Source: Anaerolineales bacterium
GTDB taxonomy: Bacteria > Chloroflexota > Anaerolineae > JAAEKA01
Assembly (NCBI GenBank): GCA_034432445.1
Contig: DAOUBX010000094.1
Span: 1 to 62,661, forward strand
Direction of reading: 5' to 3'
Length of the DNA stretch: 62,661 nt
Both the position numbers and the translations under genes were made by a program. Shown one piece after another: positions 1 through 41,160 of this stretch. Under the pieces are notes generated by a model that ran no database searches, was not told the origin of the DNA, and worked only from the letters and a program-made list of their open reading frames with translations. Position 1 is the stretch's first letter. Every line of letters begins with the position of its first letter.

Positions 1-38
1 GCAAATCGCCTACAAATGCCCGGCACCTGAGCAGTTAC
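1..38. mobile_element. Terminus of a MITE-like element, truncated by the window edge
   Basis: Ends in CTGAGCAGTTAC (27-38). The reverse complement of 1-38 matches 20848-20885 at 37 of 38 nt. Confidence 0.8.
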
Positions 39-39
39 T

Positions 40-336
40 GTCGATCTTCAAAAGTGCGCATTAGACACAGAGAATCGTGAACTACTGAAACTGGATTGTG
101 AAACTGCCGTTGCATCGTTGATCGCTGGCAAGAGCACCACCATGACCTCGAAACTCATGCTCGCGTTTCAAAACTGCAAGCTGGAAACGGCCAAGACGAT
201 GGATTACGCCACCTTCAGCCAGCGCGTTGCGCTTGATGAAGATTTCCTGGATTGGCTCAACCAAGCGCATCCGCTGTGGGAAGCTGACGCCATTGAATGG
301 GCCGTGACCGATGAAGGGAGGAGTGCGGATGGATAG
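40..336 (+). pseudogene. Probable 3' remnant of a gene cut by the MITE (hypothetical protein)
   Basis: The frame of ORF 118..336 stays open back to the MITE end (VDLQKCALDTENRELLKLD...). The nearest upstream stop, TGA 28-30, lies inside the TIR. No SD-supported start. Confidence 0.4.
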
Positions 337-938
337 CCTTTCGGTCACGCCAAGGGGATTTCCTGGCCGATTACTACCGCTGTTTCTCAGGCCAAAGCAC
401 CCAGACCTTCCGCAAACTGTACGGGTACAAGAAGCTGCTGGCGTGGCAGGCGGCGGATGAGTTAGCGCTGGCGGTGCATGACATGGTGATCGAGTTTCCT
501 TTCACCTACGCCGATCTGCGCAGCCAGATGCTCAAGTCGGCCGGGTCAGCGCCGGACAACATCGCCGAGGGCTATTGCCGCAACGCCTTGGGCGACTACA
601 TCCGCTTCTGCGAGATCGCCCGCGGCTCCTTGGGAGAGCTGGGCAGCCAAATCCAGCGCTGCGAACGGTGGCGTCTGATTGAAGGCGAACCCTTGGCGCG
701 GCTTCTTGACCTTTACAGCGATGCCACGTATCATCTGGAACAGCTCATCAAGAGCCTGCGCGCCAAACGCCAAGAAGGCGCCTGGGACCGCAGCCTCGGC
801 GTCCGCGAAGCTCCGGTCTCCTACGACGTACACTCCCTTGATCTTCCATTCGAACTCCCGGAGGACTTCTCACATCCCGATGACCCTGGCGACGACCAAG
901 TTCCTCCCACTTCCTCCGAGTTCCCCCAGTTCCCCTAG
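329..938 (+). CDS. Four helix bundle protein (TIGR02436 / 23S rRNA IVS-type, Avd-like), with a frame discontinuity near the start
   Basis: YGYKKLLAWQAADELA (420-467), SQMLKSAGSAPDNIAEGY and IARGSLGELGSQ are family motifs. The SD GGAGGAG (317-323) and ATG329 are one base out of frame with the domain. Confidence 0.8.
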
Positions 939-953
939 TTCCTCCCAATTCCC
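899..953. repeat. Degenerate 9-10-bp tandem array (AGTTCCYCC)
   Basis: agttcctccc acttcctccg agttccccc agttcccct agttcctccc aattccc; spans TAG 936-938 and ends at the SD AGGAG. Confidence 0.85.
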
Positions 954-964
954 AGGAGCTTCCC

Positions 965-2164
965 ATGCCATCCATCTACACCCAAGCCGTCCACGCCGGC
1001 GAGCGGCAGCCTGCGCCGCGCGAAGTGTCCGTCACCACACCGATCTACCACGCCGTGGGCTATCTGGAGCCGTCGGCCGCGGCCATGGAGGCGGTGTTTG
1101 CCGGCGAGCAGGCCGGCTACGTCTACCGCCGCTACGAAAGCCCCACGGTGGACGCCTTCGAGCGCGCCGTGGCCACGCTGGAAGGGGGCGAGGCGGCCTT
1201 CGCCACCGCGTCGGGCATGGCCGCGGTGCACGCCGCGCTGCTGGCGGCCGGCGTGCGCAACGGCAGCGCCGTGGTCGCCGCCCAAGACTGCTACGGCGCC
1301 ACCTACAGCCTGCTCAGCACGCTGATGGCCGAGCAGGGCGTGGCCGTCCATTTCGTGGACGTGACCGACCTGGCCCAGGTGCAGGCCACGCTGGCCGAGC
1401 GCCGGCCGGCCGCGCTGCTGGTGGAGACCATCTCCAACCCGCTGCTGAAGCTGGCTGACATCGCCGCGCTGGCTGAGCTGGCCCACGCGGCCGGCGCGGC
1501 CCTGATCGTGGACAGCACCTTCGCCACGCCCTACCTGTGCCGGCCGCTGGCTCTGGGCGCGGATTATGTCGTGCACTCGGCCAGCAAGTACATCGGCGGC
1601 CACGGCGACGTGCTGGCCGGCGTGGTGGTAACGTCCAACGCCAACCGGCAGCGGCTGTTCATGCTGGAGAAGCTGATCGGCGCGGTATTGGCGCCGGAGG
1701 TGGCGTGGCTGGCCCTGCGCGGGCTGAAGACGCTGCCGCTGCGCATGGAGCGCCACTGCGCTAACGCCCTGGCCGTGGCCGCGTGGCTGGCCCAACACCC
1801 GGCCGTGGCGCGCGTGCACTACCCTGGCCTGCCCGGCCACCCGCAGCACGAGTTGGCGCAGCGCCTGCTGGGCGGCCGCGGCTTTGGCGGTATGGTCGCC
1901 TTCGAGCTGCGCGATAGGACGCAACCTGCCGCCTTCCGCTTCCTGGACGCGCTCAAACTGGTCCTCCCTGCCACCACCCTGGGGGACGTGTACTCGCTGG
2001 CCCTCTACCCCGTCATGGCCAGCCACCGCGCTGTGCCGCCGGCCGAGCGCGCCCGCCTAGGCATCACAGACGGCCTGCTGCGCCTGAGCATCGGCATCGA
2101 GGACGTGGCCGACATCATCGCCGACCTGGCGCAAGCGCTGGAGACGGTAACACGTGATCGGTGA
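965..2164 (+). CDS. PLP-dependent trans-sulfuration enzyme (cystathionine gamma-synthase / methionine gamma-lyase family)
   Basis: YRRYESPT, ASGMAA, VETISNP, HSASKYIGGHGD (PLP lysine), LLRLSIGIED. Confidence 0.92.
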   Translation: MPSIYTQAVHAGERQPAPREVSVTTPIYHAVGYLEPSAAAMEAVFAGEQAGYVYRRYESPTVDAFERAVATLEGGEAAFATASGMAAVHAALLAAGVRNGSAVVAAQDCYGATYSLLSTLMAEQGVAVHFVDVTDLAQVQATLAERRPAALLVETISNPLLKLADIAALAELAHAAGAALIVDSTFATPYLCRPLALGADYVVHSASKYIGGHGDVLAGVVVTSNANRQRLFMLEKLIGAVLAPEVAWLALRGLKTLPLRMERHCANALAVAAWLAQHPAVARVHYPGLPGHPQHELAQRLLGGRGFGGMVAFELRDRTQPAAFRFLDALKLVLPATTLGDVYSLALYPVMASHRAVPPAERARLGITDGLLRLSIGIEDVADIIADLAQALETVTRDR

Positions 2165-2240
2165 CCCGTGATCGGTGATCGGTAACCAGTCCGTTCACCG
2201 TTCACCGTTCACCGTTCACCGTTCACCGTCCCCGTTCACC
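2154..2240. repeat. Heptamer arrays in inverted arrangement (GTGATCG-like units, then GTTCACC x6)
   Basis: Five perfect GTTCACC at 2193-2227 plus one at 2234-2240, facing GTGATCG-like units at 2154-2188. Overlaps both convergent stop codons. Confidence 0.9.
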
Positions 2241-3514
2241 CTCCCCATGATCCACAAGATCAGCGCGGCGATGCCGGCCGCGATGCTGGTGGAGAGAATG
2301 GCCAGGTTGTAGTTGTCGCCGCCCCGGTCGATGAACCAGCCGTTGACCACCGGGCTGAGGATCGAGGCTAGGGTGGTGGTGGCGTAGAACAGGCCGACTG
2401 CGCTGGCCGCGTGGCCGGGGGTGGACATGCTGAGCAGCGCAGGTAGGGCGTTGCTGTTGACCAGCGCCCAGGCCACCCCGCCCAGCGGCATGATGGCCAG
2501 GGTCACCGACACCGAGCGCACCACGAAGGCCAACGACACCAGCACGGCTAGGCCCACCAGCCCAACTATCATCGTCCGCCGGCGGCCCAAGCGCTCTCCC
2601 ACCATGCCGGCCGGCACCGAAGCCAGGATGTACGACAGGAAGAACACCCCCAGGATCAGCAGCGCCGTGTCTTCCGGCAAGGCCAACACGTTGCGGCCAT
2701 AGAGGGTAAAGAAGGTCTCCACCGCGTTGATGCCAAAGGTGTAAAAGAGGATGGCCAACAGCAGCAGCGGCACCCCGCGCCAGTTGTCGGCCAGGACGTC
2801 TTGCAACATGCGCAGGGAATTGGTGGGGGGCGCTGCGCCGCCGTCGTCAGCCTGCACCGTGTAGCGCCGGCGCAGCCAGGGCATGGCCGCGCTCAGCAGC
2901 GCGGTGGTCGTCAGCAACAACAGCGCCGCCACTGCAAAAGGCCCGGCGCGGTTGATACGATAAAGCCAGCCCAGCCCCACCGTGGCGATCAGAATGCCCA
3001 CGCCGCCCAGCACGTTGATGATGCCGTTGGCGGTGCTGCGGCGGTCGACCGGCGTCAGGTCGGGCAGCAAGGCGAACAAGGGCACGCGGATGACCGCCAT
3101 GGCGGCCAGCATGATCATCACCACGCCGATGAAGCTGGCCAGCCCGTTGAAGTACCGACCCACCAGGGGGATCAGCGCAAATCCGGCTGCGGCAAACGGC
3201 GCCCCCACCACGATGAAAGGCAGCCGCTGGCCCCAGCGGCTGCGCAGCCGGTCGCTGCGCGCGCCGATCCACGGCTGAATGAGCAGCGCCAGCAGGTTGT
3301 CCAGCATCATCACGACGCCGATGGCTGCGGCGCGCAGGCCAAAGTCCACCTGCAAGAGCACCGGCACGTAGGCGCCGTACAGCGTCCACATGGTGGTGAT
3401 AGCCATGTAACTCAAGCCGATGAAGATGGCCGGCGCGTAGTAAGCCTGGATCGCTGCGATAGCTGCGCGCCCGTGGGCCAGGGGGGAGAATTGGCGGGTG
3501 GTGGTTGGGGACAT
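2216..3514 (-). CDS. MFS transporter (maltose/sucrose GPH-like subgroup)
   Basis: About 12 hydrophobic helices; GARSDRLRSRWGQRLPFI and GERLGRRR MFS loop motifs. Confidence 0.88.
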   Translation of the reverse strand: MSPTTTRQFSPLAHGRAAIAAIQAYYAPAIFIGLSYMAITTMWTLYGAYVPVLLQVDFGLRAAAIGVVMMLDNLLALLIQPWIGARSDRLRSRWGQRLPFIVVGAPFAAAGFALIPLVGRYFNGLASFIGVVMIMLAAMAVIRVPLFALLPDLTPVDRRSTANGIINVLGGVGILIATVGLGWLYRINRAGPFAVAALLLLTTTALLSAAMPWLRRRYTVQADDGGAAPPTNSLRMLQDVLADNWRGVPLLLLAILFYTFGINAVETFFTLYGRNVLALPEDTALLILGVFFLSYILASVPAGMVGERLGRRRTMIVGLVGLAVLVSLAFVVRSVSVTLAIMPLGGVAWALVNSNALPALLSMSTPGHAASAVGLFYATTTLASILSPVVNGWFIDRGGDNYNLAILSTSIAAGIAALILWIMGRVNGDGER

Positions 3515-3695
3515 GATCGGCTCGGCGCGAGTGTATCATGTTGCACGGCCCATGACAAAACCCCTCGCCCCCCACAACGATACGGCCCCGGGTGGACCAT
3601 CATTCGGTTGACATGCCATCGGCCTGTCAGCGGCGGCCCCCGGGGGACACCCGCGCCTGCGCCGTCGCAGGGGCCAGGGTCGAACCCACCGGCTT

Positions 3696-3735
3696 AAAAA
3701 CAGCGCCGGACGCCTCCGGAGGCGTCCGGCTTTTT
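3696..3735. terminator. Intrinsic terminator hairpin, probably ending the cytochrome operon
   Basis: GCCGGACGCC-TCCGGA-GGCGTCCGGC with A and T runs on its flanks. Confidence 0.6.
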
Positions 3736-3921
3736 GGCGCACCAACAAGCCCCGTTCACGGGGCGCCGTTTGCCAGCCGAGGGTCTTCAGCCCGCGGCGC
3801 TGGCCGCCGGCGCGCGCCTCACATGTGCAACTCGATTACCCGGCTGTTTTGTCGATCTCCAACCAGCGTAACACCCGTCCCGGCGTCGTGCATTCGGTTG
3901 GTAGCCGGACGCACCTACGTG

Positions 3922-5622
3922 CTACGCAGCCGGCGGATGCGGCGGTTCCTCCTCGCGATCGGCAACGGATGCGGCGGCCGGCGGCGCTTCCGACAACTCA
4001 GCCTGATCGGCTGGCGGGACAGCGGCTGGCTCAGCGGCCGGCGCGACGGCAGCAACCGCGGCCTGGGCCGAAGCGGCCGACGGCGCGGCCGGCGCGGCCG
4101 GTCGCTGTCGATACAGCCAGTAGCCGCCGCCGGCCAGGATGCCGATGGACACCAGCAGCACAAGGAACGGGTTCCAGGGGATACGGATGCCAAAGCCGCG
4201 CGCGGCCTCCAGGTTGCCCGACAACAACACCGGCGTCGGCAGCGGCTGCGCGGCCGGAATCACCACCTGCATCCGCAAAGGCTGACGCTGGCCGGCGCTG
4301 GCCGAGCTGATAGAAGTCAGCACGGCTACCTCCTGAGGCGTGTAGCCCAGGGCCGCAAAGTCGACGATGCCGTCCGGCACGTGACAATCCTGGCACGGAC
4401 GCGCGTTCTGCTTGCCCACCACGCCATGGCTGATCTGCAACGGAACGCTCAGCTCCTTGGGCTGCCATGCGCCGCTGTAGGTCATGCCCGATTCCTTGGC
4501 GCCGACCGCGATAGCCCGCTCCAGGTCGCCCTGGGTGTAGAACACGCCCAGCTTGAGCGGGATCGCCTGGCCGCTGCTAGCGTCCACCGGCGCCGTGGCC
4601 TGGAACAGCTTGAAGGGCTGCAGCTTAGACGTCAAATCCGAGCGGCTGCCGGGCCAGGGCTGACCAGACAGGGCCGGCTGGCCGTTGTACCACAGAAAGA
4701 TCGGCTGCACCGAGTTGGGCGGCCGCACGTCGTCCACCGGCGCGTAGAGCTCGGTCACCGGGTCGTAAGTGGGCGGCGCCGTCCAGTCGCGCTCGACCAG
4801 GCCGCCGGTACCCAGCACATGGCAGGTGCGGCAGTCCAGGCGGACGTGTTGGTTGTTGATCAAGGGGTCGGTGTGGGGCGCGGCGGTGTGGCAGGTCTCA
4901 CAGGTCAGCCGCTGATCGGGCAGGTCGCGGCTCCAGATATCCGGCGCAAAGCCCAGGATCTTGTGATTCTGCGCGGCGTGGCAGTCCACACAGGTCATGC
5001 CCGCGTCGGCATGGACATCGGCCTTGCTGGCCTCGCCGTGCTTATCCTCCACCGGTGCAAAGTCCACCCCGCGCTTGAGCATTGGTCCGCCGCCGACGTT
5101 GAGATGGCACAGCAGGCAGTTCTCGGTGGTGGGACGTTGGGCCAGGCGGGCCGTCAACACGCTGCGATCCTGCGTCAACGTCCAAACGCCGTTCTCGTCC
5201 TGAACGGGAAAGCGCAGACCGCTGTCGTAGACCGGCGAATGGCAGATCAGGCAGTCGATGCCGGCCTTGTCGGCCGCCGTCGCCTGCTCTGGCGCAACAG
5301 GCAGCGCGCCGCCGCCGACATGGCAGCGGCCGCAGCCGCCGGGGATGTTGAGCGCCTCGTTAAGCATGCCCAGCCAGTTGATGCGGGCAATGCTACCGGC
5401 CACCGGGCTGTAGTGATCCATCTTGCCCTCCCACGTGTAGTGGATGCTGTGGATCACCTCGTCGGTGACGTTGCCGTGGCACATTTCGCATGTGGCTGGG
5501 CCGTTGTACTCCTGGATGCTCTTATGCGGCTCTGGCGCCTGGGCGTGGACCAGTGTTGGCAACGCAAGCGCGGCCAGCAACAACGCCAACCCGACTGCCA
5601 GGCTTTTCAACCGAAGTATCAC
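3922..5622 (-). CDS. Octaheme c-type cytochrome (OTR / tetrathionate reductase-like fold) with a C-terminal membrane anchor
   Basis: 8 CxxCH (CEMCH, CGRCH, CLICH, CLLCH, CVDCH, CETCH, CRTCH, CQDCH). HYTW, WYNG, PFK and FAALGY segments in OTR-like order. Signal peptide and C-terminal TM. GTG5622 with SD GGAGG overlaps the upstream stop (GTGA). Confidence 0.85.
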   Translation of the reverse strand: MILRLKSLAVGLALLLAALALPTLVHAQAPEPHKSIQEYNGPATCEMCHGNVTDEVIHSIHYTWEGKMDHYSPVAGSIARINWLGMLNEALNIPGGCGRCHVGGGALPVAPEQATAADKAGIDCLICHSPVYDSGLRFPVQDENGVWTLTQDRSVLTARLAQRPTTENCLLCHLNVGGGPMLKRGVDFAPVEDKHGEASKADVHADAGMTCVDCHAAQNHKILGFAPDIWSRDLPDQRLTCETCHTAAPHTDPLINNQHVRLDCRTCHVLGTGGLVERDWTAPPTYDPVTELYAPVDDVRPPNSVQPIFLWYNGQPALSGQPWPGSRSDLTSKLQPFKLFQATAPVDASSGQAIPLKLGVFYTQGDLERAIAVGAKESGMTYSGAWQPKELSVPLQISHGVVGKQNARPCQDCHVPDGIVDFAALGYTPQEVAVLTSISSASAGQRQPLRMQVVIPAAQPLPTPVLLSGNLEAARGFGIRIPWNPFLVLLVSIGILAGGGYWLYRQRPAAPAAPSAASAQAAVAAVAPAAEPAAVPPADQAELSEAPPAAASVADREEEPPHPPAA

Positions 5623-6929
5623 TGTCCACCTCCTTCGGTCTGATGGCAGGTCAGGCACTGCGTCTCTTCGTACGATGTGTGACTGATCGGCATGGGACGC
5701 ATACCGCCCTCTATGGCATGACAGAGCTTACACTGCGCCCAGTCGCCAGCGATGGTGTGGGGGATTACCGGCATCACCATGGCCGGCGCGCCGTCGGTGG
5801 ACGTGGGCGGCGTCTCGCCCGCAGCATGGCACATGGTACACTGCGCGTTGGTGAACGCCTCGTGATTGGCCGGCGCCGGCCGCACTGCGCTGCTAGGAGC
5901 GTGACAGGTGAGGCACTGGCTGTAAGGTCCATCCAGCGGATGGGGCACAGGCCCGGGCCCGGATGGCCCGCCTGCCGGCGCTGTCTCAGGCGGCGCCGGC
6001 TCGCGCGGGCTGGAGGTCAGGGTAATCACGCGCAGCGGCGTGGGCAGAGGTGTTACCTCCAGCCGAATGGCGCGCGGCGTCGGCAGCGCCGGCTGATAGG
6101 CCTGCTGTTCCACCGCCGTGCGCGGCACCGTGGTGATGGCCGTGGTCTCGGCCGTCAGCCAGCGCCACGTGCCCAACACCGACACCAGCACAAAGAGAGT
6201 GGCCAGCGGCGCGTACAGCTTGAGCCGGCTGTAGCGCACCTCTGGCTTGGGCGGCCGCCAGACCTTGCCTTGACGAATTCTCTCGATCTCCTGAGGATGC
6301 TCTTCCTCCATCTGCTCTTCGGTCAGGTAGCCGGTAAACATGCTCTTGTTGAAGACCTTGACGTGGACGTAGTAGGCGTGCCAGATCAGGATCGACAAGA
6401 CGGCCAGCACCGCCTCCATGCCGTGAGCGATCTTGGCCGCGGGCACGATCTCGCCCGGCAGGTATTGCGTGACCAGCACCGGGTTCCACAGCACGTAGCC
6501 GGTGAGCGTCATCAGCACCGTGCCCCACACCACCGCCCAGTACTCGATCTTCTCGATGAAGTTGAAGCGGGGGAAGCGAGGCTTCTGGCGGCTGAGGCCG
6601 AGGTTATACTTGACGGCTGCGAAGAAGTCGGTCACGTCGCCCAACGTCGGCAGCATGCTCATCGACTTGCGCTGCACGTAGACGCGGTAGCCCACTTGCA
6701 CCGCGTGGGCAATGGAGGTCAAGATCAAGATGACCGCGAACGTGTGGTGGATAACCCGCGTTTGCTCGATGCCTCCCAGGGCGCGAATCACGGCCACCGA
6801 GATGCCCAAGTCGGCGTACTTCTGCACCAGGCCTGTGATGGCCAGCATCGTGAAGGAGACCAAGAGCAGCAGGTGCAGCACCCGGTCGCTGACCAGGAAA
6901 CGCAGATAGCGTTGCGTGTTCTCGCTCAT
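5619..6929 (-). CDS. Cytochrome b (FdnI/CbcL-type) fused to a C-terminal tetraheme c domain
   Basis: RVLHLLL, RVIHH, IEYWAVVWG and AHGMEA...WHAYYVH b-heme histidines. 4 CxxCH (CLTCH, CTMCH, CKLCH, CLTCH) after a Pro-rich linker. Confidence 0.88.
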   Translation of the reverse strand: MSENTQRYLRFLVSDRVLHLLLLVSFTMLAITGLVQKYADLGISVAVIRALGGIEQTRVIHHTFAVILILTSIAHAVQVGYRVYVQRKSMSMLPTLGDVTDFFAAVKYNLGLSRQKPRFPRFNFIEKIEYWAVVWGTVLMTLTGYVLWNPVLVTQYLPGEIVPAAKIAHGMEAVLAVLSILIWHAYYVHVKVFNKSMFTGYLTEEQMEEEHPQEIERIRQGKVWRPPKPEVRYSRLKLYAPLATLFVLVSVLGTWRWLTAETTAITTVPRTAVEQQAYQPALPTPRAIRLEVTPLPTPLRVITLTSSPREPAPPETAPAGGPSGPGPVPHPLDGPYSQCLTCHAPSSAVRPAPANHEAFTNAQCTMCHAAGETPPTSTDGAPAMVMPVIPHTIAGDWAQCKLCHAIEGGMRPMPISHTSYEETQCLTCHQTEGGGQ

Positions 6930-8068: not shown

Positions 8069-8166
8069 CGATCGATCTCCAGGAGCCCGTTGGTGCTTAT
8101 CAAGCGAATTGATCGCACAGATCACACATTGTCCGTGCTCGGCCCAGCGGTGGCACATGCGAAGCC

Positions 8167-8208
8167 ATCATAACAGGATTCAAGGGAAAGACCTATGACG
8201 TAGATCAT
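8167..8208 (-). promoter_or_regulatory. Cytochrome operon promoter: extended -10 plus a Crp/Fnr-like box
   Basis: TGTTATGAT (8175-8167) and ATGAC-GTAG-ATCAT (8195-8208), centred about -41.5 from the predicted start. Confidence 0.5.
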
Positions 8209-8278
8209 GTTTCATGACCAAAATTTGCTCCTGAGCAAAACTCGTTTTTCCACCAAACGCAGCGCCATGCAAGAAAAC

Positions 8279-8307
8279 TTGACGCAGAGTTAGGATAGTG
8301 TTATAAC
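8279..8307 (+). promoter_or_regulatory. Sigma70 promoter
   Basis: TTGACG-N17-TATAAC with TGn extension. Confidence 0.75.
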
Positions 8308-8349
8308 CTGTGACATCTTCGTAGTTTCTCGCAGAATTTCACCAGAACC

Positions 8350-8898: not shown

Positions 8899-8912
8899 AA
8901 GGAGACTTGTTT

Positions 8913-9437: not shown

Positions 9438-9440
9438 GGC

Positions 9441-9468
9441 TTGACATCTCGTTCCAACGCGCTATACT
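9441..9468 (+). promoter_or_regulatory. Sigma70 promoter
   Basis: TTGACA-N16-TATACT. Confidence 0.6.
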
Positions 9469-9538
9469 CGTTTCAACCGTTTGATTGTGCGGGCGGCCTT
9501 GCCAGGCCGCTCGCCTCTTTTATCCCGGCCAACTCGCG

Positions 9539-10821: not shown

Positions 10822-10856
10822 CCCTGGGCATGACCCCGGTATGCGCCCAAACAGAC

Positions 10857-19523: not shown

Positions 19524-20753
19524 ATGTACATTTTTAAGGCAGGCGTTGTCGGCGCCGGGTTCATGGGCGCCGAGATCGCCCAGGTCATCAGCTTCAGCGG
19601 CTTGCCGGTGGTGGTCAAGGACATCGACCCTGCCATGCTGCAGAAGGCCGAGGATCACATTCGCGCCATTTACCAGGGCCGCGTCGACAAGGGCAAGATG
19701 ACCGCGGGCGAGCTGCGCGACAAAATGGACTTGATCGAGTTCACCCTGGATTACGACTCATTCGCCGACGCTGACTTCATCATCGAGGCCGTGCCGGAGC
19801 GCATGGATTTGAAGGTCAAGGTCTTCCAAGAACTGGCCAAGGTGGCGCCGGAGACAGCCATCTTCGCCTCCAACACCTCGGCCCTTAGCATTTCGGAGAT
19901 GGGCTTCAAAGGCGGCCGGCCGGAGCGCACGATCGGCATGCACTTCTTCAGCCCGGCCCACGTGATGAAGCTGGTAGAGGTCATTCCCGGCCTGGACACA
20001 GCGCAAGATGTGATCGACGATACCGTACAGTTCACCGAAAGCTTGCGCAAGATCGCCGTCGTCGTCAAGGAGTGCCCCGGCTTCCTGGTCAACCGCCTGC
20101 TGGCGCCTTACTTAGGTGAGGCCATGATGGCGCTGCAAGAGGGCGCAGCCACAGCGAGCGAGATCGACGAGGCCATGGTCGACTTCGGCATGCCGATGGG
20201 GCCGTTCACCTTGCTCGATTTCATGGGCATCGACGTTAGCGCGCATGCCGGCGCGTACATGGCCAGCGAATACGGCCCACGCTTCGAGTCGCCCGAGATC
20301 CTCAAGCGCCTGGTAGCAGCCGGCCGCTACGGCGAGAAAACCGGCGCCGGCTTCTACGGCTATGGCGAGCAAACTGACGCCCCCGTCAAGCAGATGATCG
20401 CCGAGATCCAGGCCAGCGGCATTCCCAAGGGCCCCTTCACCGTCGAGCGCTTGATCTTCCCCATGATCAACGAAGCGGCCCTAATTGCGCAGGAGAACAT
20501 TGCCTCCATCCCCGACATCGACATGGCGATGATCGCCGGCACCGGCATGACCTACAAAGGCGAACGCATGGGCCCGCTGGCCATTGCCGACGAGTACGGC
20601 CTGGACGTGGTGCTGGCCGGCCTGGAGCAGATGCTGCATGAGCCGTGGGGCGGTGAGCGCTTCCGCCCCTCGCTGCTACTCAAGACCAAGGTGCGCGCCG
20701 GCCATCTCGGCAAGAAGACGGGCCGCGGGTTCCATGAGCACATGGCATGGTAG
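19524..20753 (+). CDS. 3-hydroxyacyl-CoA dehydrogenase (duplicated C-terminal domain)
   Basis: GVVGAGFMG, IEAVPE, SNTS, GMHFFSP, PMGP and MGPL, GKKTGRGF. Confidence 0.93.
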   Translation: MYIFKAGVVGAGFMGAEIAQVISFSGLPVVVKDIDPAMLQKAEDHIRAIYQGRVDKGKMTAGELRDKMDLIEFTLDYDSFADADFIIEAVPERMDLKVKVFQELAKVAPETAIFASNTSALSISEMGFKGGRPERTIGMHFFSPAHVMKLVEVIPGLDTAQDVIDDTVQFTESLRKIAVVVKECPGFLVNRLLAPYLGEAMMALQEGAATASEIDEAMVDFGMPMGPFTLLDFMGIDVSAHAGAYMASEYGPRFESPEILKRLVAAGRYGEKTGAGFYGYGEQTDAPVKQMIAEIQASGIPKGPFTVERLIFPMINEAALIAQENIASIPDIDMAMIAGTGMTYKGERMGPLAIADEYGLDVVLAGLEQMLHEPWGGERFRPSLLLKTKVRAGHLGKKTGRGFHEHMAW

Positions 20754-20847
20754 ATCGGTAATTGGTAGATCGGTTAAGTGGTAAATGGGTGGTCGCGCGA
20801 CCAACTGACCACTTGACCAATCTACCAACCTACCACTTTACCAATTC
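20749..20847. repeat. Octamer arrays in inverted arrangement (GGTAnATn / nACCAnTn)
   Basis: ggtagatc ggtaatt ggtagatc ggttaagt ggtaaatg ... gaccactt gaccaatc taccaacc taccactt taccaatt. The first unit contains TAG 20751-20753. Confidence 0.85.
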
Positions 20848-20958
20848 GTAACTGCTCAGGTGCCGGGTATTTGTAGGCGATTTGCGATCTAGGTTGGCTT
20901 CTCAGACACGTTTGCAAACCAGAATCCACATGCCCGGCACCTATGGCTGAGTAGTTAC
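20848..20958. mobile_element. 111-bp MITE
   Basis: TIRs GTAACTGCTCAG / CTGAGTAGTTAC and subterminal GTGCCGGG / CCCGGCAC, with a perfect 8-bp direct repeat ACCAATTC at 20840-20847 and 20959-20966. Confidence 0.85.
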
Positions 20959-20987
20959 ACCAATTCACTAATACAGGAGACATCCCC

Positions 20988-21793: not shown

Positions 21794-21864
21794 GGTGATC
21801 GGTGGGCAGCTGGCACTACCCACTTTCCACCGATCACCGACCACCGGTGACCGATCACCACCCC
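21794..21864. repeat. Heptamer array (GGTGATC / ACCGATC)
   Basis: ggtgatcggtg ... accgatc accgacc accggtg accgatc acc, ending at the SD AAGGAGG. Confidence 0.75.
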
Positions 21865-26337: not shown

Positions 26338-26522
26338 TGCGCCGACTAGTTTCAGGGCCGACTTGAGCGCCTACTGAGATACAGGTGCCGGGCCCTTGGA
26401 ACTGTGCTTGCGACAGCGGTTGCAGTGCCGACTCGGGCTGTCAATCAGTCGCCAGCGCCCGCCACTGGAGCGGCGCATCGGTCGCCAACCCTTGCAAACA
26501 GAAAAATCGGCACAGGACAGCT

Positions 26523-31304: not shown

Positions 31305-31346
31305 CATCTGGGCCACGATCCTGACCGTCCCGGCAGCAATCAGCAC

Positions 31347-34031: not shown

Positions 34032-35122
34032 TGCGCCTGAACCTGCGCCGTTTTGATTTTGTGCTGCTGTTAACTACCCTGGTCTTGATCGTATTTGGTG
34101 TGGCCATGGTCTACAGCGCCACACTCAACGTGCCGGGCTACGAGGACTACGCGTTGCGGCAGGGCATCTATGCCATCATCGGCTTCGTGTTGCTGCTGTT
34201 GGCGGCCGCCTTCGATTATCGCCTGCTCACGAGCCTGCAATGGCCCCTGTATGGCGTGATGCTGGCCGCCTTGGCGGCCGTGGCTGTCGCCGGACAGGTA
34301 CGCGGCGGTGCTTCCGGCTGGTTCGATGCCGGCATTGTTTTTGTCCAGCCCGCCGAGATTGCCAAGGTCCTGTTCATCTTAGCGTTTGCGCAGTATCTCA
34401 GCAGCCATCGCGAGCAGCTGAGCAAACCGCAGTGGGTTGTGTTGGCGCTGCTGCTGCTGCTCGTTCCCATGGCGCTGATCTACATGCAACCTGATCTGGG
34501 CACGGCCATTGTGCTGGGTGTGATCGGCGCGTTCATGCTCTTTGCCGCCGATTTGCCGTGGGGCTACATGCTGGCCGGCGTAGTCGGGATCGTGCTAGCT
34601 GCTCCGGTAGTCTGGGCCAACTTGCAGGGGTACATGCGCCAGCGCATCCTCATCTTCCTTGACCCGGCCAGCGACCCCGACGCCAGCTTCAACATTGCGC
34701 AGGCGCTGATCAGCATCGGCAACGGCGGCTGGCTGGGCAAGGGCTTTGCGCAGGGCAGCCAGAGCCAGCTGCACTTCTTGCGCATCCGCTACGCCGACTT
34801 CATCTACAGTGTGATCGCCGAAGAGCTGGGATTCGTCGGCGCTATCACGTTGATGATCCTACTGTTGGTCGTGTTGTGGCGCCTGTTTACCATCGCCGAT
34901 CAAGCACGCGACCACTTCGGTCGGCTGATCGTCGTGGGCGTCATTGCCCTGATCCTGTTCCAATCGGTAGTCAGTATCGGCATGAACCTGGGGCTATTGC
35001 CCGTTACGGGCATCACCCTGCCCTTCATCAGCTACGGCGGCAGCTCCCTCATCACGCTGATGATCGGCATTGGCCTGGCCGAGAGCGTGGCCATGCGCAA
35101 CCGCAAGATCGAGTTCGATTAG
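34031..35122 (+). CDS. rodA: SEDS peptidoglycan polymerase RodA
   Basis: QPAEIAK, QPDLGT, GGWLGKG, IAEELGFVG, GITLPFISYGGSS. Confidence 0.95.
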   Translation: MRLNLRRFDFVLLLTTLVLIVFGVAMVYSATLNVPGYEDYALRQGIYAIIGFVLLLLAAAFDYRLLTSLQWPLYGVMLAALAAVAVAGQVRGGASGWFDAGIVFVQPAEIAKVLFILAFAQYLSSHREQLSKPQWVVLALLLLLVPMALIYMQPDLGTAIVLGVIGAFMLFAADLPWGYMLAGVVGIVLAAPVVWANLQGYMRQRILIFLDPASDPDASFNIAQALISIGNGGWLGKGFAQGSQSQLHFLRIRYADFIYSVIAEELGFVGAITLMILLLVVLWRLFTIADQARDHFGRLIVVGVIALILFQSVVSIGMNLGLLPVTGITLPFISYGGSSLITLMIGIGLAESVAMRNRKIEFD

Positions 35123-35131
35123 CCGCGCTCT

Positions 35132-35160
35132 TTGACGCCTCGGTGGCCGTGTGGTATACT
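35132..35160 (+). promoter_or_regulatory. Sigma70 promoter of the serS leader
   Basis: TTGACG-N17-TATACT with TGn. Confidence 0.8.
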
Positions 35161-35207
35161 CGGTGCAGTTGCGCAGGTTCCCTGCGTCGGAGAAAGCCAT
35201 CATAGCG

Positions 35208-35466
35208 CAGCGACGTTGATGGAGCCGAGTAGGCTGGTGCGCCGATAGCAGAGAGTTGCCGGACGGTGCAAGGCAACCGGACCCCAGCTGAACAGCCCTC
35301 CTGAGTCCTTGGCCGGAACGGCATCCTTCCAAGTATGGTCGAGCGCTTGGCCCCCGTTAGCGGGCCTGGGTCAACCATGACCCCTGAGGCTGTGTCCGCG
35401 AGGGCGCGGCGAAACCAGGTGGCACCACGAGAGCGCCCCTCGTCCTGGTAGGCGGGGGGCGCTTTG
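35208..35466 (+). promoter_or_regulatory. T-box riboswitch
   Basis: AGUA (35227-35230), AGAGA and GGUGCAA stem-I motifs, T-box AGGTGGCACCACG (35417-35429), then an AGCGCCCC...GGGGCGCT-TTG terminator upstream of serS. Confidence 0.9.
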
Positions 35467-35548
35467 ATTCAGCGCCACAATGCCGGCGCATGACATGACA
35501 AGCACAACGAACCCTGCTTCACCGCAGAGCCATTTGGAGGCGACTGAC

Positions 35549-36829
35549 ATGCTCGACATCAAGTTCATCCGCGAGAATCCCGAATTTGTCAAACAGCAGA
35601 TGCAGGCGCTGCAAGACCCCAATGCGCCTGTCGACCGCACGCTGGCGCTCGACGAGGAGCGACGCAACTTGCTCATGCGTGTGGAAGAGCTGAAGGCGCA
35701 GCGCAACGCCGAGAGCAAGCGCATCGGCCAGCTCATGCGCGAGCAGAAGCTCGCCGAGGTCGAGACGTTGAAAGAGGCCATGGCCCGCGTCGGCGACGAG
35801 ATCAAAGCACTGGACGAGCGCCTGAAAGTGGTCGACGCAGAGCTGTTCGACGCCATGAGCCGTATCCCCAACCTGCCGCTGCCCAACGTGCCAGTGGGCA
35901 AAGACGACAGCGAGAACGTCGTCGTGCGCACGTGGGGTCAGCCGCGCGCCTTCGTCTTTGAGCCACTGCCGCATTGGGACCTGGGCGAGGCGCTAGACAT
36001 CATCGACTTCGAGCGCGGGGTTAAGCTCTCCGGCAGCCGCTTCTACGTGCTGAAAGGATTGGGTGCGCGGCTGCAACGCGCGCTGATCCAGTGGATGCTC
36101 GACGTGCACATCAACGAACACGGCTACACCGAGGTGTATCCTCCTTTCCTCGTGCGGGAGGCCTGTCTCTTCGGCACCGGCAACCTACCCAAGTTCGGCG
36201 AGAATCTCTACCGCGACATCGAGGACGACCTGTGGCTGATTCCAACGGCTGAGGTGCCGGTCACCAACCTCTACCGCGACGAGATCATCCCGCCGGGCAA
36301 GCTGCCGATCTACCACGTGGCCTACACGCCCTGCTTCCGCCGCGAGAAGATGTCGGCCGGCAAGGATGTGCGCGGCATCAAGCGCGGGCATCAGTTCGAC
36401 AAGGTGGAGATGGTCAAGTTCGTCGAACCAGAGCAAGGCGAAGCTGAGCTGGCCAAGCTGATCGCCGACGCCGAAGACATCTGCCGTCGGCTGGAAATCC
36501 CGTACCGTGTGGTGCAAATGTGCACCGGCGACCTGGCTTTCTCTGCAGCAGCCAAGTTCGACCTGGAAATGTGGGCTCCCGGCTGTCAGGAGTGGCTGGA
36601 GGTCAGCTCCTGTTCCTTGTTCACCGACTTCCAAGCGCGGCGCGCCAACATCCGCTACCGCCCCGCTGAAGGCGCCAAGCCCCGTTACGTCTACACCATC
36701 AACGGCTCCGGGCTGGCCCTGCCGCGCGTCGTCATCGCCATCTTGGAGAACTACCAACAGATCGATGGCAGTGTGGTCGTACCGGACGTGTTGCGGTCAT
36801 ACATGGGCGGCGTCGCCGTGATCAGGTAG
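35549..36829 (+). CDS. serS: Serine--tRNA ligase
   Basis: MLDIKFIRENP, LIPTAEVP, FRREK, GHQFDKVE, EVSSCS, TINGSGLA. Confidence 0.98.
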   Translation: MLDIKFIRENPEFVKQQMQALQDPNAPVDRTLALDEERRNLLMRVEELKAQRNAESKRIGQLMREQKLAEVETLKEAMARVGDEIKALDERLKVVDAELFDAMSRIPNLPLPNVPVGKDDSENVVVRTWGQPRAFVFEPLPHWDLGEALDIIDFERGVKLSGSRFYVLKGLGARLQRALIQWMLDVHINEHGYTEVYPPFLVREACLFGTGNLPKFGENLYRDIEDDLWLIPTAEVPVTNLYRDEIIPPGKLPIYHVAYTPCFRREKMSAGKDVRGIKRGHQFDKVEMVKFVEPEQGEAELAKLIADAEDICRRLEIPYRVVQMCTGDLAFSAAAKFDLEMWAPGCQEWLEVSSCSLFTDFQARRANIRYRPAEGAKPRYVYTINGSGLALPRVVIAILENYQQIDGSVVVPDVLRSYMGGVAVIR

Positions 36830-36839
36830 ACGTCTCATT

Positions 36840-38708
36840 ATGTCGATAGCCCCACCACCCAACCTGCGCGACATCGTCGAGCCAGTGCGTTCAGGCCGGC
36901 AGGTGCCTTGGCGGCGCCTCTTCGGTTATCTCAAGCCGCACAAGTGGCGCATGGTAGCAGCCATTGTTGGCCTGATGATCAGCAGCGTGGCGATGCTGGC
37001 CTTTCCCCTCTTCATTGGGCAAACCATCGCCGATGTCCTCGGCCAGGGCGACTACAACGCGCTGAACCGGTTTGTGGTCCTGATGGTGGGGTTGTTTCTG
37101 GTGATGGCCGTCGGCAGCTTCGTGCAGAGCTACTTCCTGGGCATTACCGGCGAGAGAATCGTCTACGAGCTGCGCACTTCCCTCTTTCAGCGCTTGATCA
37201 CCCTCTCGATGAGCTTCTACAGCCGGCACCGCGTGGGTGAGCTGATGTCGCGACTCTCCAACGACGTGACCCTGGTGCGCAACCTGCTGACCACCAGCAT
37301 CACAACCATCCTCAGCTCGCTGATCTCCGTGATCGGGTCTGTGGTGATCGTTTTCTCGCTCAACCCATCACTGACCCTGTTCATCCTGTTCCTGATGCCG
37401 CTGCTGATCGTCATCGCTTTTGCCTTTGGCCGGCCGCTCGAACGCATGTCGACGCGCGTGCAAGACGAGCTGGCCGGCGCCACGGTCACAGCCGAAGAAG
37501 GGCTGTCCGGCATTCGCGTGGTCAAGGGCTTCGGCCGCGAGGACTACGAATACCAGCGCTATCGCCGCGATTTAGGCAACAGTCTGCGGGCCGCCATCCG
37601 TATGACCGCGGCGCGGGCCGGCTTTGGCAGCTTGATGCTCTTCCTAGGGTTCGGCGCCATTGCTGCCATCCTGTGGTACGGTGGTCGACAGGTCATCGCC
37701 GGCGCCATGACCGTGGGCATGATCACCAGCTTCATCATCTACGGCTTGTTGATCGCGTCCGGGTTGGGCAGCCTGGCCGGTCTGTACGGCGAGTTCCGTG
37801 CTGCGCTGGGCGCGATCAAGCGCGTGTTTGAGATCCTCGACACCCAACCCACCGTGGTTGAGACGCCAAACGCCCGGCCATTGCCGCCCGTGCAAGGCCG
37901 CATCACCTTCGATAACGTGTCCTTCAGCTACGCCGACGAGAGCCGCGTGTTGCGCCATGTGTCGCTCGACATTGCGCCCGGCGAAATCGTGGCTTTGGTG
38001 GGGCCTAGCGGCGCCGGCAAGAGCACGCTGTGCAGCCTGGTCCCCCGCTTCTACGACCCTGACGAGGGCGTGGTAGCTATTGACGGTTATGACCTGCGCA
38101 CGGTGACCAAGTATAGCCTGCGTAGCCAGATCGGTCTGGTGCCGCAAGAGACGTTGCTCTTCGGCGGCACGGTCTACGAGAACATCCTCTATGGCCGGCT
38201 CGACGCCAGCGAGGAGGAAGTCATTGCAGCGGCCAAGGCGGCTTATGCGCACGAGTTCATTGTCGCTCTGCCACAGGGCTACCAGACGCGGGTCGGCGAA
38301 CGCGGCATGAACCTGAGCGGCGGCCAACGCCAACGCATCGCTATCGCGCGCGCCATCCTCAAGAACCCCCGCATTTTGTTGTTGGACGAGGCAACCAGCT
38401 CGCTGGACAACGAGTCGGAACGCTTCGTGCAAGCCGCGCTAGACCGGCTGATGGCCGACCGCACGACGATCATCATTGCCCACCGGCTAAGTACGATCCA
38501 GGCCGCGCACCGCGTTGTGGTGATGGATCATGGACAGGTTGTGGAGATCGGTACCCACGATGAGCTGCTGGCGGCGGGCGGGCTCTATGCCAAGCTCTAC
38601 CTGATGCAGTTCGCCGAAAGCGACAGGCCGCGCGAGATCATCGATGTGTGGCCGCCGGGCTACGAAGATCCCCCATCCTTTGTAGTAGCGGCTTCAGCCG
38701 CCCGTTAA
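36840..38708 (+). CDS. Type IV ABC exporter (MsbA-like TMD-NBD fusion)
   Basis: Six TM helices, [29 protein letters not shown]. Confidence 0.93.
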
Positions 38709-38727
38709 CGGCTAAAGCCGTCACTAC
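38682..38727. repeat. GTAG-family REP doublet
   Basis: GTAGTAGCGGCTTCAGCCG...CGGCTAAAGCCGTCACTAC inverted pair, each half with an internal palindrome. Confidence 0.75.
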
Positions 38728-38746
38728 GAAGAAGGAGTTGCGATGT

Positions 38747-40294
38747 ATGCGCCAACACCAACAACGCACCGTTGAGGGTTTTCTCTTCACCGACCAATAC
38801 CAGCTCACCATGTCCCAGCTCTATTTCCGCATGGGCCTGCACGAGCGCCAGGCGCAGTTCGACCACTTCTTCCGTCGCTATCCCAACTATGGCTCGCATC
38901 AGGCCGGCTACTGCATCAACGCTGGGCTGGAATGGCTGGTGGACTGGATGCGACAGGCCCACGTGACCGACGAGGACATCGACTACCTGCGCAGCCAGCG
39001 CGGCCCCGCAGGGCAACGCACCTTCAGCGATGACTTCCTTGCCTGGTTGCGACGCGCCGGCGGGTTCGACGGCATCACCCTGCACGCCATCCCCGAAGGC
39101 CGCGTGGTGCATCCCGACGTGCCGCTGACGGTCGTAGAGGGGCCTCTAGCCCTGGCGCAGATCCTGGAGACGCCGCTGCTCAACCTGCTGAACTACCAGA
39201 CGCTCATTGCCACCAAAGCAGCGCGCATTCGCGAGGTGGCTCGCAAGGGCACAGTGCTGGAGTTTGGCCTGCGTCGCGGGCCGGAGCGGGGGGCCAACGC
39301 CGGCGGCCGCGCGGCGCTGATCGGCGGCGCCGACTTCAGCTCCAACGTCGGGCTCTCCCACGTGCTGGATCTACCGCCGAAAGGCACCCACGCCCACAGC
39401 ATGGTGCAGGTGTTCATGGCCATGGGCGCCGGCGAGCTGGCCGCGTTCCGCGCCTATGCTGAAGTCTACCCCGACAACTGCCTCTTGCTGGTGGACACCG
39501 TAGACACCCTCGGCAGCGGCGTGCCCCACGCTATCACCGTCTTCGAGGAGTTGCGCCGGGCCGGCCACCGCCCCGTGGGCATCCGCCTGGACTCTGGCGA
39601 CCTGGCCTATCTCTCGATCCAGGCCGCGAAGATGCTGGACGAGGCCGGCTTCCCGGAAACAGTTATCGTGCTCAGCAACGAGCTGGACGAGTTGAACATT
39701 TGGCAGATCACCAGCCAGATCGCCGAGGAAGCCCTCCGTTACGGCGTCGACCCCGACCGGTTGATCCGCCGCCTGGTGTACGGCGTGGGCACCCGGTTGA
39801 TCACGTCAGCCGGCCAGGGCGCCCTAGACGGCGTGTACAAGCTGGTGGCGGTGGAGGTAGAAGGAGAGATGCAACCGGCCATCAAGATCTCCGAGTCTAT
39901 TGCCAAGACGCTGAACCCGGGGAACAAGCGGGTGTGGAGGCTCTACGACCGGCGCGGCCTGGCTACTGCCGACCTGCTGACCCTAGCCGACGAGGAACCT
40001 GCCCAGCAGCCAGAGCTCACGCTGCGTCACCCGGCGGACCACACCAAGTACCGCGTCCTGCGGCAGGAGGAGATAGCGCGCATCGAACCCCTGCTGGTGG
40101 AGGTACTGCGCGAGGGTCGGCTGGTGATCGATCTCCCTACACTGGCGGAAATGCGGCAGCGCCGTGCAACCGACGTAGAACACCTCGACCCGGGCGTGCG
40201 TCGCCTGGTGACGCCGCACATCTACCACGTCAGCCTGAGCCAGCGACTGTGGGACTTGAAACAGACGTTGATCAAACAAGCCAGGGGCAGTTAG
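38747..40294 (+). CDS. pncB: Nicotinate phosphoribosyltransferase
   Basis: [39 protein letters not shown]; SD GAAGGAG. Confidence 0.93.
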
Positions 40295-40336
40295 CCAGCG
40301 CAGCAGCAAACTGACATGGTGAGCGGCCTTGAGGAC

Positions 40337-40368
40337 AAAAGAAGAGGCGAGCCTGACAGGCTCGCCTC
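40337..40368 (-). terminator. SRP RNA terminator
   Basis: GAGGCGAGCCTG-A-CAGGCTCGCCTC with a minus-strand T-rich tail. Confidence 0.75.
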
Positions 40369-40377
40369 ATGATTCCT

Positions 40378-40647
40378 GGCCGTGCACCCCTCGTCGAACT
40401 GCGACCCCCGGCTTACCGAACCAGTAGGCTCCAGCCAGGCTACCCCGTGGCACCCACAGGTGACCGCTTATGGCTGCTACCTCCCGGTCCTGACCAGGTT
40501 CACGGGCCTGCGCCGCACAGGACCCAGCTCTCGACGCCACTTAGCCCGGCAGTCACAAAGATCGTCGAGCCCTTGGAGTGGGAATTCAGCCCCGCTATAG
40601 CGGATTGCGGGTACAAGGCACCGCTAGCGCCCCGCTTAGCACGACCA
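40378..40647 (-). ncRNA. ffs: Large (Alu-containing) signal recognition particle RNA
   Basis: Helix-8 motif TCAGGACCGGGAGGTAGCAGC. Complementary ends GGTCGTGC / GCACGGCC about 270 nt apart, with own promoter and terminator. Confidence 0.93.
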
Positions 40648-40652
40648 CCCTC

Positions 40653-40681
40653 ATTGTACCGCAGATAAGGAGGGGTGGCAA
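40653..40681 (-). promoter_or_regulatory. ffs promoter
   Basis: TTGCCA-N17-TACAAT. Confidence 0.8.
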
Positions 40682-40752
40682 GTTGGCTGCCGCGCGTTGT
40701 GCGCAGACTTGAATCAAAAAGTCGGCGTCCAACACGCCGACTTTCTGGACAC

Positions 40753-40842
40753 TGGCGGAGAGGGTGGGATTTGAACCCACGATCCCCGGAGGGATACGCG
40801 CTCTCCAGGCGCGCGCACTAGACCGGACTATGCGACCTCTCC
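40753..40842 (-). tRNA. tRNA-Ser(GGA)
   Basis: 90 nt; anticodon arm CGCGC-CTGGAGA-GCGCG, long variable arm, GGTTCAAATCC, encoded CCA. Confidence 0.97.
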
Positions 40843-40909
40843 ATGAACTACGAGGATTATACCATTACCGCTCAGGCGCCACCAAATCTGCCCTTGTCGT
40901 AACCGTTTG

Positions 40910-41160
40910 GTAACTGCTCAGCCCGGTGAACGGAACACCTGCACTTGCATCGCAGGTGCAAGTGTTCACCGCGTCTGACAGCACGACACCTGCGCCTGCG
41001 CCGACGAAGCCTTAAGAAGCGAAGCGCCTGGTGGGCCGCAGGCGAGGTGCAGGTGAGCGGCCACAGCCGCTGGGAACACGCTCCGCCAGGCTCTGCGGGG
41101 CCTTCGTACTGTCAGCCGGGGATTTCCAATCCTTGGATAGGGGTACGCCTGAGCAGTTAC
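40910..41160. mobile_element. 251-bp MITE of the same TIR family
   Basis: Perfect TIRs GTAACTGCTCAG / CTGAGCAGTTAC. Flanks ACCGTTTG and ACTGTTTG match at 7 of 8. Hairpin-rich interior. Confidence 0.78.

Follow-up and report, generated by a model that had tools for sequence, protein, structure and literature searches.

Miniature transposons with ends of the ISBst12 group (IS66 family) in an uncultured Anaerolineales genome

Introduction

The stretch of Anaerolineales DNA analysed here (62,661 bp, referred to as the window) carries short repeats bounded by GTAACT(A/G)CTCAG, which raises the question of whether these are mobile elements, which transposase family they belong to, and where their different interiors come from. 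The repeats are real miniature transposons (MITEs) without a transposase gene, an ordinary kind of mobile DNA that has seemingly not been described in this uncultured Chloroflexota lineage. In the reading that we favour, with a probability of roughly 0.85, they derive from, or mimic, single-ORF ISBst12-group (IS66) elements, being short, non-coding and amplified in uncultured Anaerolineae.

Results and discussion

Repeats in the window

The end motif GTAACTRCTCAG, with up to one mismatch allowed, was found five times in the window, every match being exact (27–38(-), 20848–20859(+), 20947–20958(-), 40910–40921(+) and 41149–41160(-)). The number expected by shuffling is 0.22 ± 0.52, and 0 of 100 shuffled sequences had five matches. 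The 62.7 kb thus contain three copies plus relics, as listed below.

1–38, minus strand: truncated copy of the ~111-bp MITE, with the terminus GTAACTGCTCAG at 27–38 and the remainder beyond the window start
20840–20847, no strand: left 8-bp target-site duplication of the 111-bp MITE, ACCAATTC
20848–20958, plus strand: complete 111-bp MITE, left end GTAACTGCTCAGGTGCCGGG, right end GTAACTACTCAGCCATAGGTGCCGGG (reverse complement)
20959–20966, no strand: right target-site duplication of the 111-bp MITE, ACCAATTC
26371–26398, plus strand: decayed single MITE end, CTACTGAGATACAGGTGCCGGGCCCTTG, with the GTAA tip missing
40902–40909, no strand: left target-site duplication of the 251-bp element, ACCGTTTG
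40910–41160, plus strand: 251-bp MITE belonging to another subfamily; its 12-nt ends GTAACTGCTCAG are perfect, and its interior pairs strongly with itself
41161–41168, no strand: right target-site duplication of the 251-bp element, ACTGTTTG, a 7/8 match to the left one
41176–41192, plus strand: possible relic end of an older copy, GCCGGGCACCTGAGT, weak (score 25–27 against a shuffle maximum of 23–24)
41292–41299, no strand: uninterrupted site GATTTTGA, directly before which a 251-type element of strain L109 stops

Re-scanning the window returned the same coordinates and sequences for all copies as the original prediction, including the perfect duplication at each flank of the 111-bp copy and the differing flanks of the 251-bp copy. 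The edge copy is complementary to 20848–20885 at 37 of its 38 bases, and the two complete copies have only the terminal 12–13 nt in common, both as described before. The claim that the window lacks a transposase was borne out by tblastn, in which 14 ISBst12-group transposases used as queries gave 0 matches. Two features had been overlooked: the decayed end at 26371–26398, which is 22/28 identical to the CCATAG-type end (alignment score 31, shuffle maximum 26), and the weaker possible end at 41176–41192.

The 111-bp MITE adjoins a heptamer-repeat hairpin, at whose edge it has inserted into a non-coding spacer of a beta-oxidation gene cluster; 29 bp separate it from the start codon (20988) of the enoyl-CoA hydratase (ECH) gene downstream. 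Elements of the ~111-bp type have imperfect inverted repeats of ~30 nt, and the DNA fold of this copy has an energy of -22.7 kcal/mol (z -3.9 against shuffles). Neither promoter-like nor terminator-like sites were found in it.

Copies in other genomes, target duplications and empty sites

The same ends were found at at least 23 loci from four Anaerolineae/Caldilineales MAGs, namely on at least 10 contigs of one Anaerolinea, at least 9 of another, at least 2 from Caldilineales and at least 2 from Anaerolineae. The search for further copies suggested with the original prediction was therefore successful. Many contigs of these short-read assemblies stop inside the repeat, and L001 begins inside the 20848 copy. 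The end pattern also matched in Porifericola (L016) and Lewinellaceae (L020), but within ordinary long ORFs, and these matches were discarded as chance. Viral contigs contained no instance of the MITE end pattern or of the pattern combining transposase and end, and the plasmid collection had no near match to this locus.

Sixteen end pairs had their ends 60–300 bp apart, and 14 of them are flanked by 8-bp duplications with at most one mismatch (10 perfect, 4 with one mismatch), while a fifteenth has a perfect duplication at a 3-nt offset. The chance of such a duplication around a random end pair is ~4e-4. The surplus of 8-bp flanking duplications that had been anticipated is indeed a strong excess. 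The target duplications have ~45% G+C, compared with ~60% for the genomes.

Sites without the element, which had also been proposed as a check, were seen in both directions. The 111-bp element is missing from the orthologous loci L028, L029, L033 and L034, and the relatives without it in the orthologous 3HCDH-ECH spacer have ECH proteins 95%, 93% and 87% identical. L029 has one ACCAAGTTACTAAC, where the window has ACCAATTC, the MITE and then ACCAATTCACTAAT. Conversely, strain L109, which is 99.3% identical, carries a different 251-type copy (92% identical) 131 bp away. This insertion is known from its right junction, which places the right end at window position 41291/41292. Since the L109 copy stops directly before GATTTTGA, which is uninterrupted in the window, the window represents the unoccupied allele for that insertion. 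Differences in insertion site between strains this similar suggest recent activity, and the copies could therefore serve as strain markers. The species is present in the samples SRR7903765, SRR32105351 and SRR32105362.

The elements are 70–117 bp or 251 bp long without coding capacity, have terminal inverted repeats and a duplication of fixed length, are multicopy, and are present or absent at orthologous sites, all of which characterises MITEs. Taken with the lack of a transposase in the window, their size, ends, duplications and empty sites sustain the non-autonomous MITE family with 8-bp target duplications first proposed for them.

The ends and the ISBst12 group

A resemblance to IS66-type elements had been noted in the original prediction, which stopped short of assigning the family. 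The hint was correct and can be made firm: the family is now assignable because the terminal 12–14 nt are the same as the inverted repeats found in single-ORF ISBst12-group elements, and, as judged from sequence, the MITE ends are firmly those of this group. The GTAA ends with 8-bp (8–9) direct repeats by which IS66 elements are recognised are found in the window elements, and were confirmed on ISEc8, IS682 and five plasmid-borne single-ORF elements. The full-length elements with the same 12–14-nt ends and 8-bp duplications have one DDE_Tnp_IS66 transposase each.

Among the closest known elements are ISDge4 of Deinococcus geothermalis (per PMC12898284) and a near relative of it on plasmid pDrdI of D. 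wulumuqiensis, to whose ends GTAACTGCTCAG is identical. ISDge4 (IS66 family, ISBst12 group) has the ends GTGACTACTCAGCA and GTAACTGCTCAGCA and an 8-bp direct repeat, encodes a 449-aa transposase, and was observed to transpose, its donor copies remaining in place (PMC12898284). The 1454-bp pDrdI element has GTAACTGCTCAGCA at both ends and the duplication TAAAAATC. Both share with the window MITEs the terminal GTAACTGCTCAG(C/G), identical over 12–13 nt, the 8-bp target duplication and the short inverted repeats (~14 nt). They differ in coming from another phylum and in size and content, ISDge4 being 1469 bp long with a DDE_Tnp_IS66 gene, while the window elements of 111 and 251 bp are geneless.

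The element of Geobacillus kaustophilus pHTA426, annotated as "IS66-like element ISGka4 family transposase" and belonging to the ISBst12 group, has the ends GTAACTATTCAGCC, found exactly in some Anaerolinea MITE copies, and the 8-bp duplication AACTCGTC. Unlike the MITEs, this element is autonomous and has one 485-aa transposase, which shares 34–40% identity with those of metagenomic elements with MITE-type ends. An element of Ca. Chlorohelix (Chloroflexota) has the duplication TAAGATTT. In Intrasporangium (L004), the C-terminus of a PF03050 transposase is directly followed by CCGGCACCTGAGTAGTTAC, which matches the MITE end at 20/20 positions. Protein searches seeded with this transposase fragment returned IS66-family fragments only, of which the few named ones were actinobacterial and none was labelled Anaerolineae. 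A metagenome scan for full-length elements gave 70 loci, including 1513-bp elements with both ends present and perfect 8-bp duplications, whose ~482-aa ORFs match DDE_Tnp_IS66 (E 4e-41 to 3e-46), zf-IS66 and DUF6444. No MITEs occur within these 70 loci, and beyond the termini the MITEs have no sequence in common with the full-length elements.

The classical IS66 elements ISEc8 and IS682 (E. coli O157 Sakai) also have GTAA tips and 8-bp duplications (GATTACGC and TCTTTCTC). Their ends, however, start with GTAAGCGT instead of GTAACTRCTCAG, and they contain three ORFs (tnpA, tnpB and tnpC), with TnpC only ~24% identical to the single-ORF transposases. A DDE_Tnp_IS66 (PF03050) ORF is absent from both the elements and the window, which makes the elements derivatives or dependants of the ISBst12 group and not insertion sequences.

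Origin of the interiors

The original prediction had explained the different interiors by exchangeable hairpin cargo. As a mechanism this was not supported, since the ~111-bp copies can be aligned in full between genomes: those from the window and four MAGs are homologous end to end, and the 70–74-bp copies are deletion derivatives. The 251-bp element is a separate subfamily that has only its ~13-nt ends in common with the ~111-bp type, which is about as long as the full-length elements' own inverted repeats (14 nt).

It is nevertheless conceivable, if unlikely, that these are modular MITEs in which fixed ~12-nt ends recombine with or capture unrelated hairpin sequences, so that interiors are swapped. 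This would account for the 111-bp and 251-bp elements being alike at their ends only and for both interiors folding better than shuffles, and would accommodate a third interior type in Anaerolinea sp. CH3 (L014:956, L024:2535) as well as a 48-nt match to part of the 251-bp interior (92% identity) found without a recognisable terminus in another Anaerolinea MAG (L006). Besides the end-to-end homology of the ~111-bp copies, it is opposed by the shortness of the ISBst12-group inverted repeats, as independent internal deletions of different full-length parents would give just this picture, and by the search for exchanges, in which no interior between different ends and no recombinant was found.

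A further and quite improbable reading is that ends of ~13 nt suffice for the transposase and that in Anaerolineae subfamilies arise repeatedly around unrelated strong folds, some of which are kept as RNA-level regulators. In that case the 251-bp module of the tRNA-Ser spacer, or the hairpin in front of the ECH gene, would be terminators, insulators or processing signals. Both complete copies lie in non-coding spacers, and no evidence for a host function of the elements was found.

The 251-bp element

The 251-bp MITE occupies the non-coding spacer between tRNA-Ser(GGA) (40753–40842, -) and tRNA-Ser(CGA) (41344–41433, -), and its fold reaches -70 kcal/mol (z -5.6 against shuffles). Such stability, the position between two tRNA genes and the imperfect duplication are what one might see in a structured RNA gene or regulatory region with two relic ends by chance, and not a transposon. 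We consider this very unlikely, given that the ends are perfect 12-nt inverted repeats flanked by a 7/8 duplication, that a diverged second copy has the same end at another site in the 99.3%-identical strain, and that Rfam gave no match to the element even at E<=1. Nesting of the 251-bp element in an older 74-bp copy was also considered and rejected, the end scores being only marginal.

Mobilisation and significance

For the favoured derivation from ISBst12-group elements, the two window subfamilies (~111 bp and 251 bp) both carry the GTAACT(A/G)CTCAG terminus. A transposase of the ISBst12 group, whether encoded at another place in the genome or present only in the past, would recognise the ~14-nt ends, cut there and join the element to a target opened with an 8-bp stagger, the repair of which would produce the target duplication. 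Partners with the same 12–20-nt ends exist in other phyla, and a related one in Chloroflexota. Among the Anaerolineae sequences examined, none was an autonomous element carrying the extended MITE ends (GTGCCGGGCACTTG), and the 14 ISBst12-group transposases detected no partner with corresponding ends, either in the window or across ~220 kb of loci from Anaerolineae. As Anaerolineae yielded no autonomous counterpart, mobilisation in trans by an ISBst12-group transposase is something that we infer. It also counts against the favoured reading that the 251-bp element shares only 12–13 nt and has a one-mismatch duplication, and that the partial interior match of L006 comes without a terminus.

Since IS families other than IS66 also make 8-bp duplications, the elements might belong to one of these (e.g. 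ISL3, IS1595, IS256 or IS6) with GTAA ends by coincidence, but this is extremely improbable in view of the 14-nt identity at the GTAACTACTCAGCC end of the 111-bp copy (20 nt with L004), the single position by which GTAACTACTCAGCC differs from the pHTA426 IRL GTAACTATTCAGCC, and the fact that such ends enclose only DDE_Tnp_IS66 genes among the full-length elements examined.

Correia elements, RUP, Nezha and MITEPsy1/2 resemble the window elements in being short, non-coding, multicopy, intergenic and hairpin-capable, with terminal inverted repeats and a target duplication of fixed length; they originate from other IS families. MITEPsy1, for instance, has been entered as "IS5?" (PMC3189936). Full-text searches of the literature turned up no MITE described from Anaerolineae or connected with the IS66/ISBst12 group.

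The elements leave the understanding of transposition unchanged, and their interest is modest. What they do offer is a name, and the probable transposase family, for a repeat at which assemblies of uncultured Anaerolineae break; these bacteria are abundant members of wastewater and digester communities. The GTAACTRYTCAG motif occurs as exact 12-mers in single-ORF IS66-family elements of at least three phyla (Deinococcota, Bacillota and Actinomycetota), with close variants in Cyanobacteriota and Chloroflexota, and being common to several phyla it is of use in annotating members of the ISBst12 group, which has been poorly studied, as well as their derivatives.

Terminal repeats and copies in the window

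The terminal 12-mer GTAACTRCTCAG has five matches in the window (27-38, minus strand; 20848, plus; 20947-20958, minus; 40910, plus; 41149-41160, minus), all of them exact in a search allowing at most one mismatch. The count expected from dinucleotide-preserving shuffles is 0.22, and five was reached in 0 of 100. The copies and decayed ends are as follows.

20848-20958: 111-bp element, ACCAATTC at either flank
40910-41160: 251-bp element, flanks ACCGTTTG and ACTGTTTG
1-38: edge copy, complementary to the 111-bp copy's left end at 37/38 positions
26371-26398: decayed MITE end
41176-41192: possible decayed end, weaker than that at 26371-26398

The original prediction had described the ends, the 8-bp flanks and the edge copy correctly; the two decayed ends are additional to it.

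Distribution of the family

Scanning of species-representative genomes with the pattern of the ~111-bp-type ends matched at least 26 stretches. Among the matches listed, one uncultured Anaerolinea MAG accounts for 10, Anaerolinea sp. CH3 for 9, and a Caldilineales MAG and another Anaerolineae MAG for two each, while 3 are singletons. Many of the matching contigs break inside the repeat, and Logan contigs from the organism of the window break there too. All pairs of ends lying 60-300 bp apart in the matching loci and the window were considered (16 pairs), and 14 are flanked by 8-bp duplications (10 perfect, 4 with one mismatch), while a fifteenth has a perfect 8-bp duplication displaced by 3 nt; the chance of such a duplication for a random pair is about 4 in 10,000. 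With copies in several MAGs, the proposed MITE family with 8-bp target duplications is borne out.

Relationship of the ends to the ISBst12 group

A full-text literature search with the 12-mer led to ISDge4 of Deinococcus geothermalis, which belongs to the ISBst12 group of the IS66 family, is 1469 bp long with a single 449-aa transposase, ends in GTGACTACTCAGCA and GTAACTGCTCAGCA, generates an 8-bp direct repeat, and has been seen to transpose with retention of the donor copies (PMC12898284). A local tblastn search seeded with IS66 TnpC proteins from E. coli Sakai matched one of the scan singletons, an Intrasporangium MAG (L004), where CCGGCACCTGAGTAGTTAC, identical to the MITE end at 20/20 positions, directly follows the C-terminus of a PF03050 transposase. 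In a metagenome scan, 70 loci combined this type of end with the conserved NNxAE motif in the appropriate spacing, and 6 of them contain elements within perfect 8-bp duplications: five elements of 1513 bp (duplications AAAATATA, GAAAAGTG, GATTTATC, GAAATTGC and CAACAGAA) plus a 1466-bp element (GAATAAAC). Those of 1513 bp carry GTAACTACTCAG at either end and one ORF of ~482 aa, with Pfam matches to DDE_Tnp_IS66 (E 4e-41 to 3e-46), zf-IS66 and DUF6444. Elements on annotated plasmids, with the ends checked on the sequence, are listed below.

Ends and duplications of elements on five annotated replicons
D. wulumuqiensis pDrdI (1454 bp): ends GTAACTGCTCAGCA on both sides; duplication TAAAAATC
G. 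kaustophilus pHTA426: ends GTAACTATTCAGCC and GTATCTATTCAGCC; duplication AACTCGTC
B. thuringiensis pLM4: ends GTAACTACTCAGCT; 8-bp duplication not intact (3/8 positions differ)
Acaryochloris marina: ends GTTACTGCCCAGGC; duplication CTTCATTC
Ca. Chlorohelix allophototropha (Chloroflexota): ends GTAACAAATCAGCC and GTAACAGTTCAGAC; duplication TAAGATTT

Transposases of the metagenomic elements show 34-40% identity to that of Geobacillus pHTA426, and only ~24% to the TnpC of E. coli IS682, an element ending in GTAAGCGT. Judged from this identity and from the ends in L004, the metagenomic elements and the plasmids, the MITE ends are those of the single-ORF ISBst12 group, and not of classical three-ORF IS66 elements. 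The stop codon of the transposase gene in full-length elements falls within the right inverted repeat (as in ...CCT GAG TAG followed by TTAC, in the compared loci L049:1655-3167, L046 and L004:440-473), so that the terminal motif is partly coding; this double role may be one reason why it is conserved across phyla.

Subfamilies and their probable origin

When aligned, the ~111-bp copies prove homologous from end to end, with GT(A/T)ACT(A/G)CTCAGG(T/C)GCCGGGCACTTG on the left, a core of ~50 nt, and on the right CAAGTGCCCGGCACCT, a variable 4-nt spacer (ATGG in the window) and CTGAG(T/C)AGTTAC. Copies of 70-74 bp are deletion derivatives of this type, and the 251-bp element has the ends alone in common with it. 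A third subfamily in Anaerolinea sp. CH3 (L024:2535-2634 and L014:956-1097) has the same 12-nt tip and the interior AGAAACCGGGTT...AACCCGGTTTC; in L024, a ~111-bp-type copy is nested within it. Near a contig end of another uncultured Anaerolinea sp. (L006:5960-6030), a 48-nt stretch is 92% identical to the 251-bp interior, including the hairpin CCAGGGATTGGAAATCCCTGG, with no recognisable GTAACTGCTCAG tip alongside; this stretch represents either a copy that has decayed or a separate instance of the interior module.

No transposase was found in the window, as had been noted, or in the Anaerolineae loci examined, and the similarity of the full-length elements compared to the MITEs extends no further than the terminal 17-20 nt. 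The MITEs were probably mobilised in trans: an ISBst12-group DDE transposase would recognise the ~14-nt ends and insert the element where the target is cut with an 8-bp stagger, and internal-deletion derivatives keeping the ends would then be amplified. Since the inverted repeats of the full-length elements are just ~14 nt, derivatives that arose independently from different parents would have only those bases in common, and this is the pattern that the 111-bp and 251-bp subfamilies show. The differing interiors, previously proposed to be exchangeable hairpin cargo, would be accounted for by separate internal-deletion derivatives, with no need for exchange. Both interiors fold more stably than shuffled sequences (z = -3.9 for the 111-bp and -5.6 for the 251-bp element). 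They yielded no match to an RNA family and no promoter or terminator, so that a host function is not indicated.

Literature searches found no MITE tied to the IS66/ISBst12 group or to Anaerolineae, which does not prove that none has been described. MITEs as a kind are well known, and IS66/ISBst12 elements are known too.

Mobility and genomic setting

The 111-bp copy lies in the spacer between 3-hydroxyacyl-CoA dehydrogenase and enoyl-CoA hydratase genes (gene content read from syntenic loci), 29 bp upstream of the hydratase ATG and at the edge of a heptamer-repeat hairpin. The orthologous spacers of relatives (hydratase 95%, 93% and 87% identical) keep the hairpin and lack the element; in one of these loci (L029), a single ACCAAGTTACTAAC occupies the position of ACCAATTC[element]ACCAATTCACTAAT in the window.

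Two tRNA genes flank the 251-bp copy, which interrupts neither the terminator of the upstream gene nor the region where the downstream gene is likely to have its promoter.

40380-40644, minus strand: large SRP RNA gene, adjoining the tRNA genes
40753-40842, minus strand: tRNA-Ser(GGA)
41344-41433, minus strand: tRNA-Ser(CGA)

A Logan contig from a different sample (L109), 99.3% identical to the window across 2.9 kb, starts with the final 53 nt of a 251-type element (49/53 identical to the window copy). This element, of which one junction is seen, adjoins window position 41292, a site 131 bp away from the window's own copy at which the window itself has no interruption. Two strains of one species carry different 251-type copies at different sites of the same spacer, which points to recent movement of this subfamily.

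The closest named relatives of a flanking protein are from Anaerolineae MAGs. An 82%-identical 51-nt repeat (D12) is nothing but the two tRNA-Ser genes themselves. Just downstream of these, 41704-45363 (annotated via the compared locus L108) contains carboxyltransferase, OAD gamma, biotin carrier and OAD beta genes, and looks like a Na+-translocating decarboxylase operon. Intergenic heptamer arrays are laid out as long hairpins with imperfect pairing, such as (TGGTAGA)n, a GC-rich centre and (TCTACCA)n, at 2145-2240, 20748-20845, 21828-21859 and 48967-49025, as well as at L014:920-955; two MITE ends adjoin such arrays. The array at 20748-20845 is present at the orthologous site in relatives, with fast-diverging sequence. 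A short tandem array with a period of 10 or 19 (AGTTCCTCCC) lies between ORFs at 899-953.
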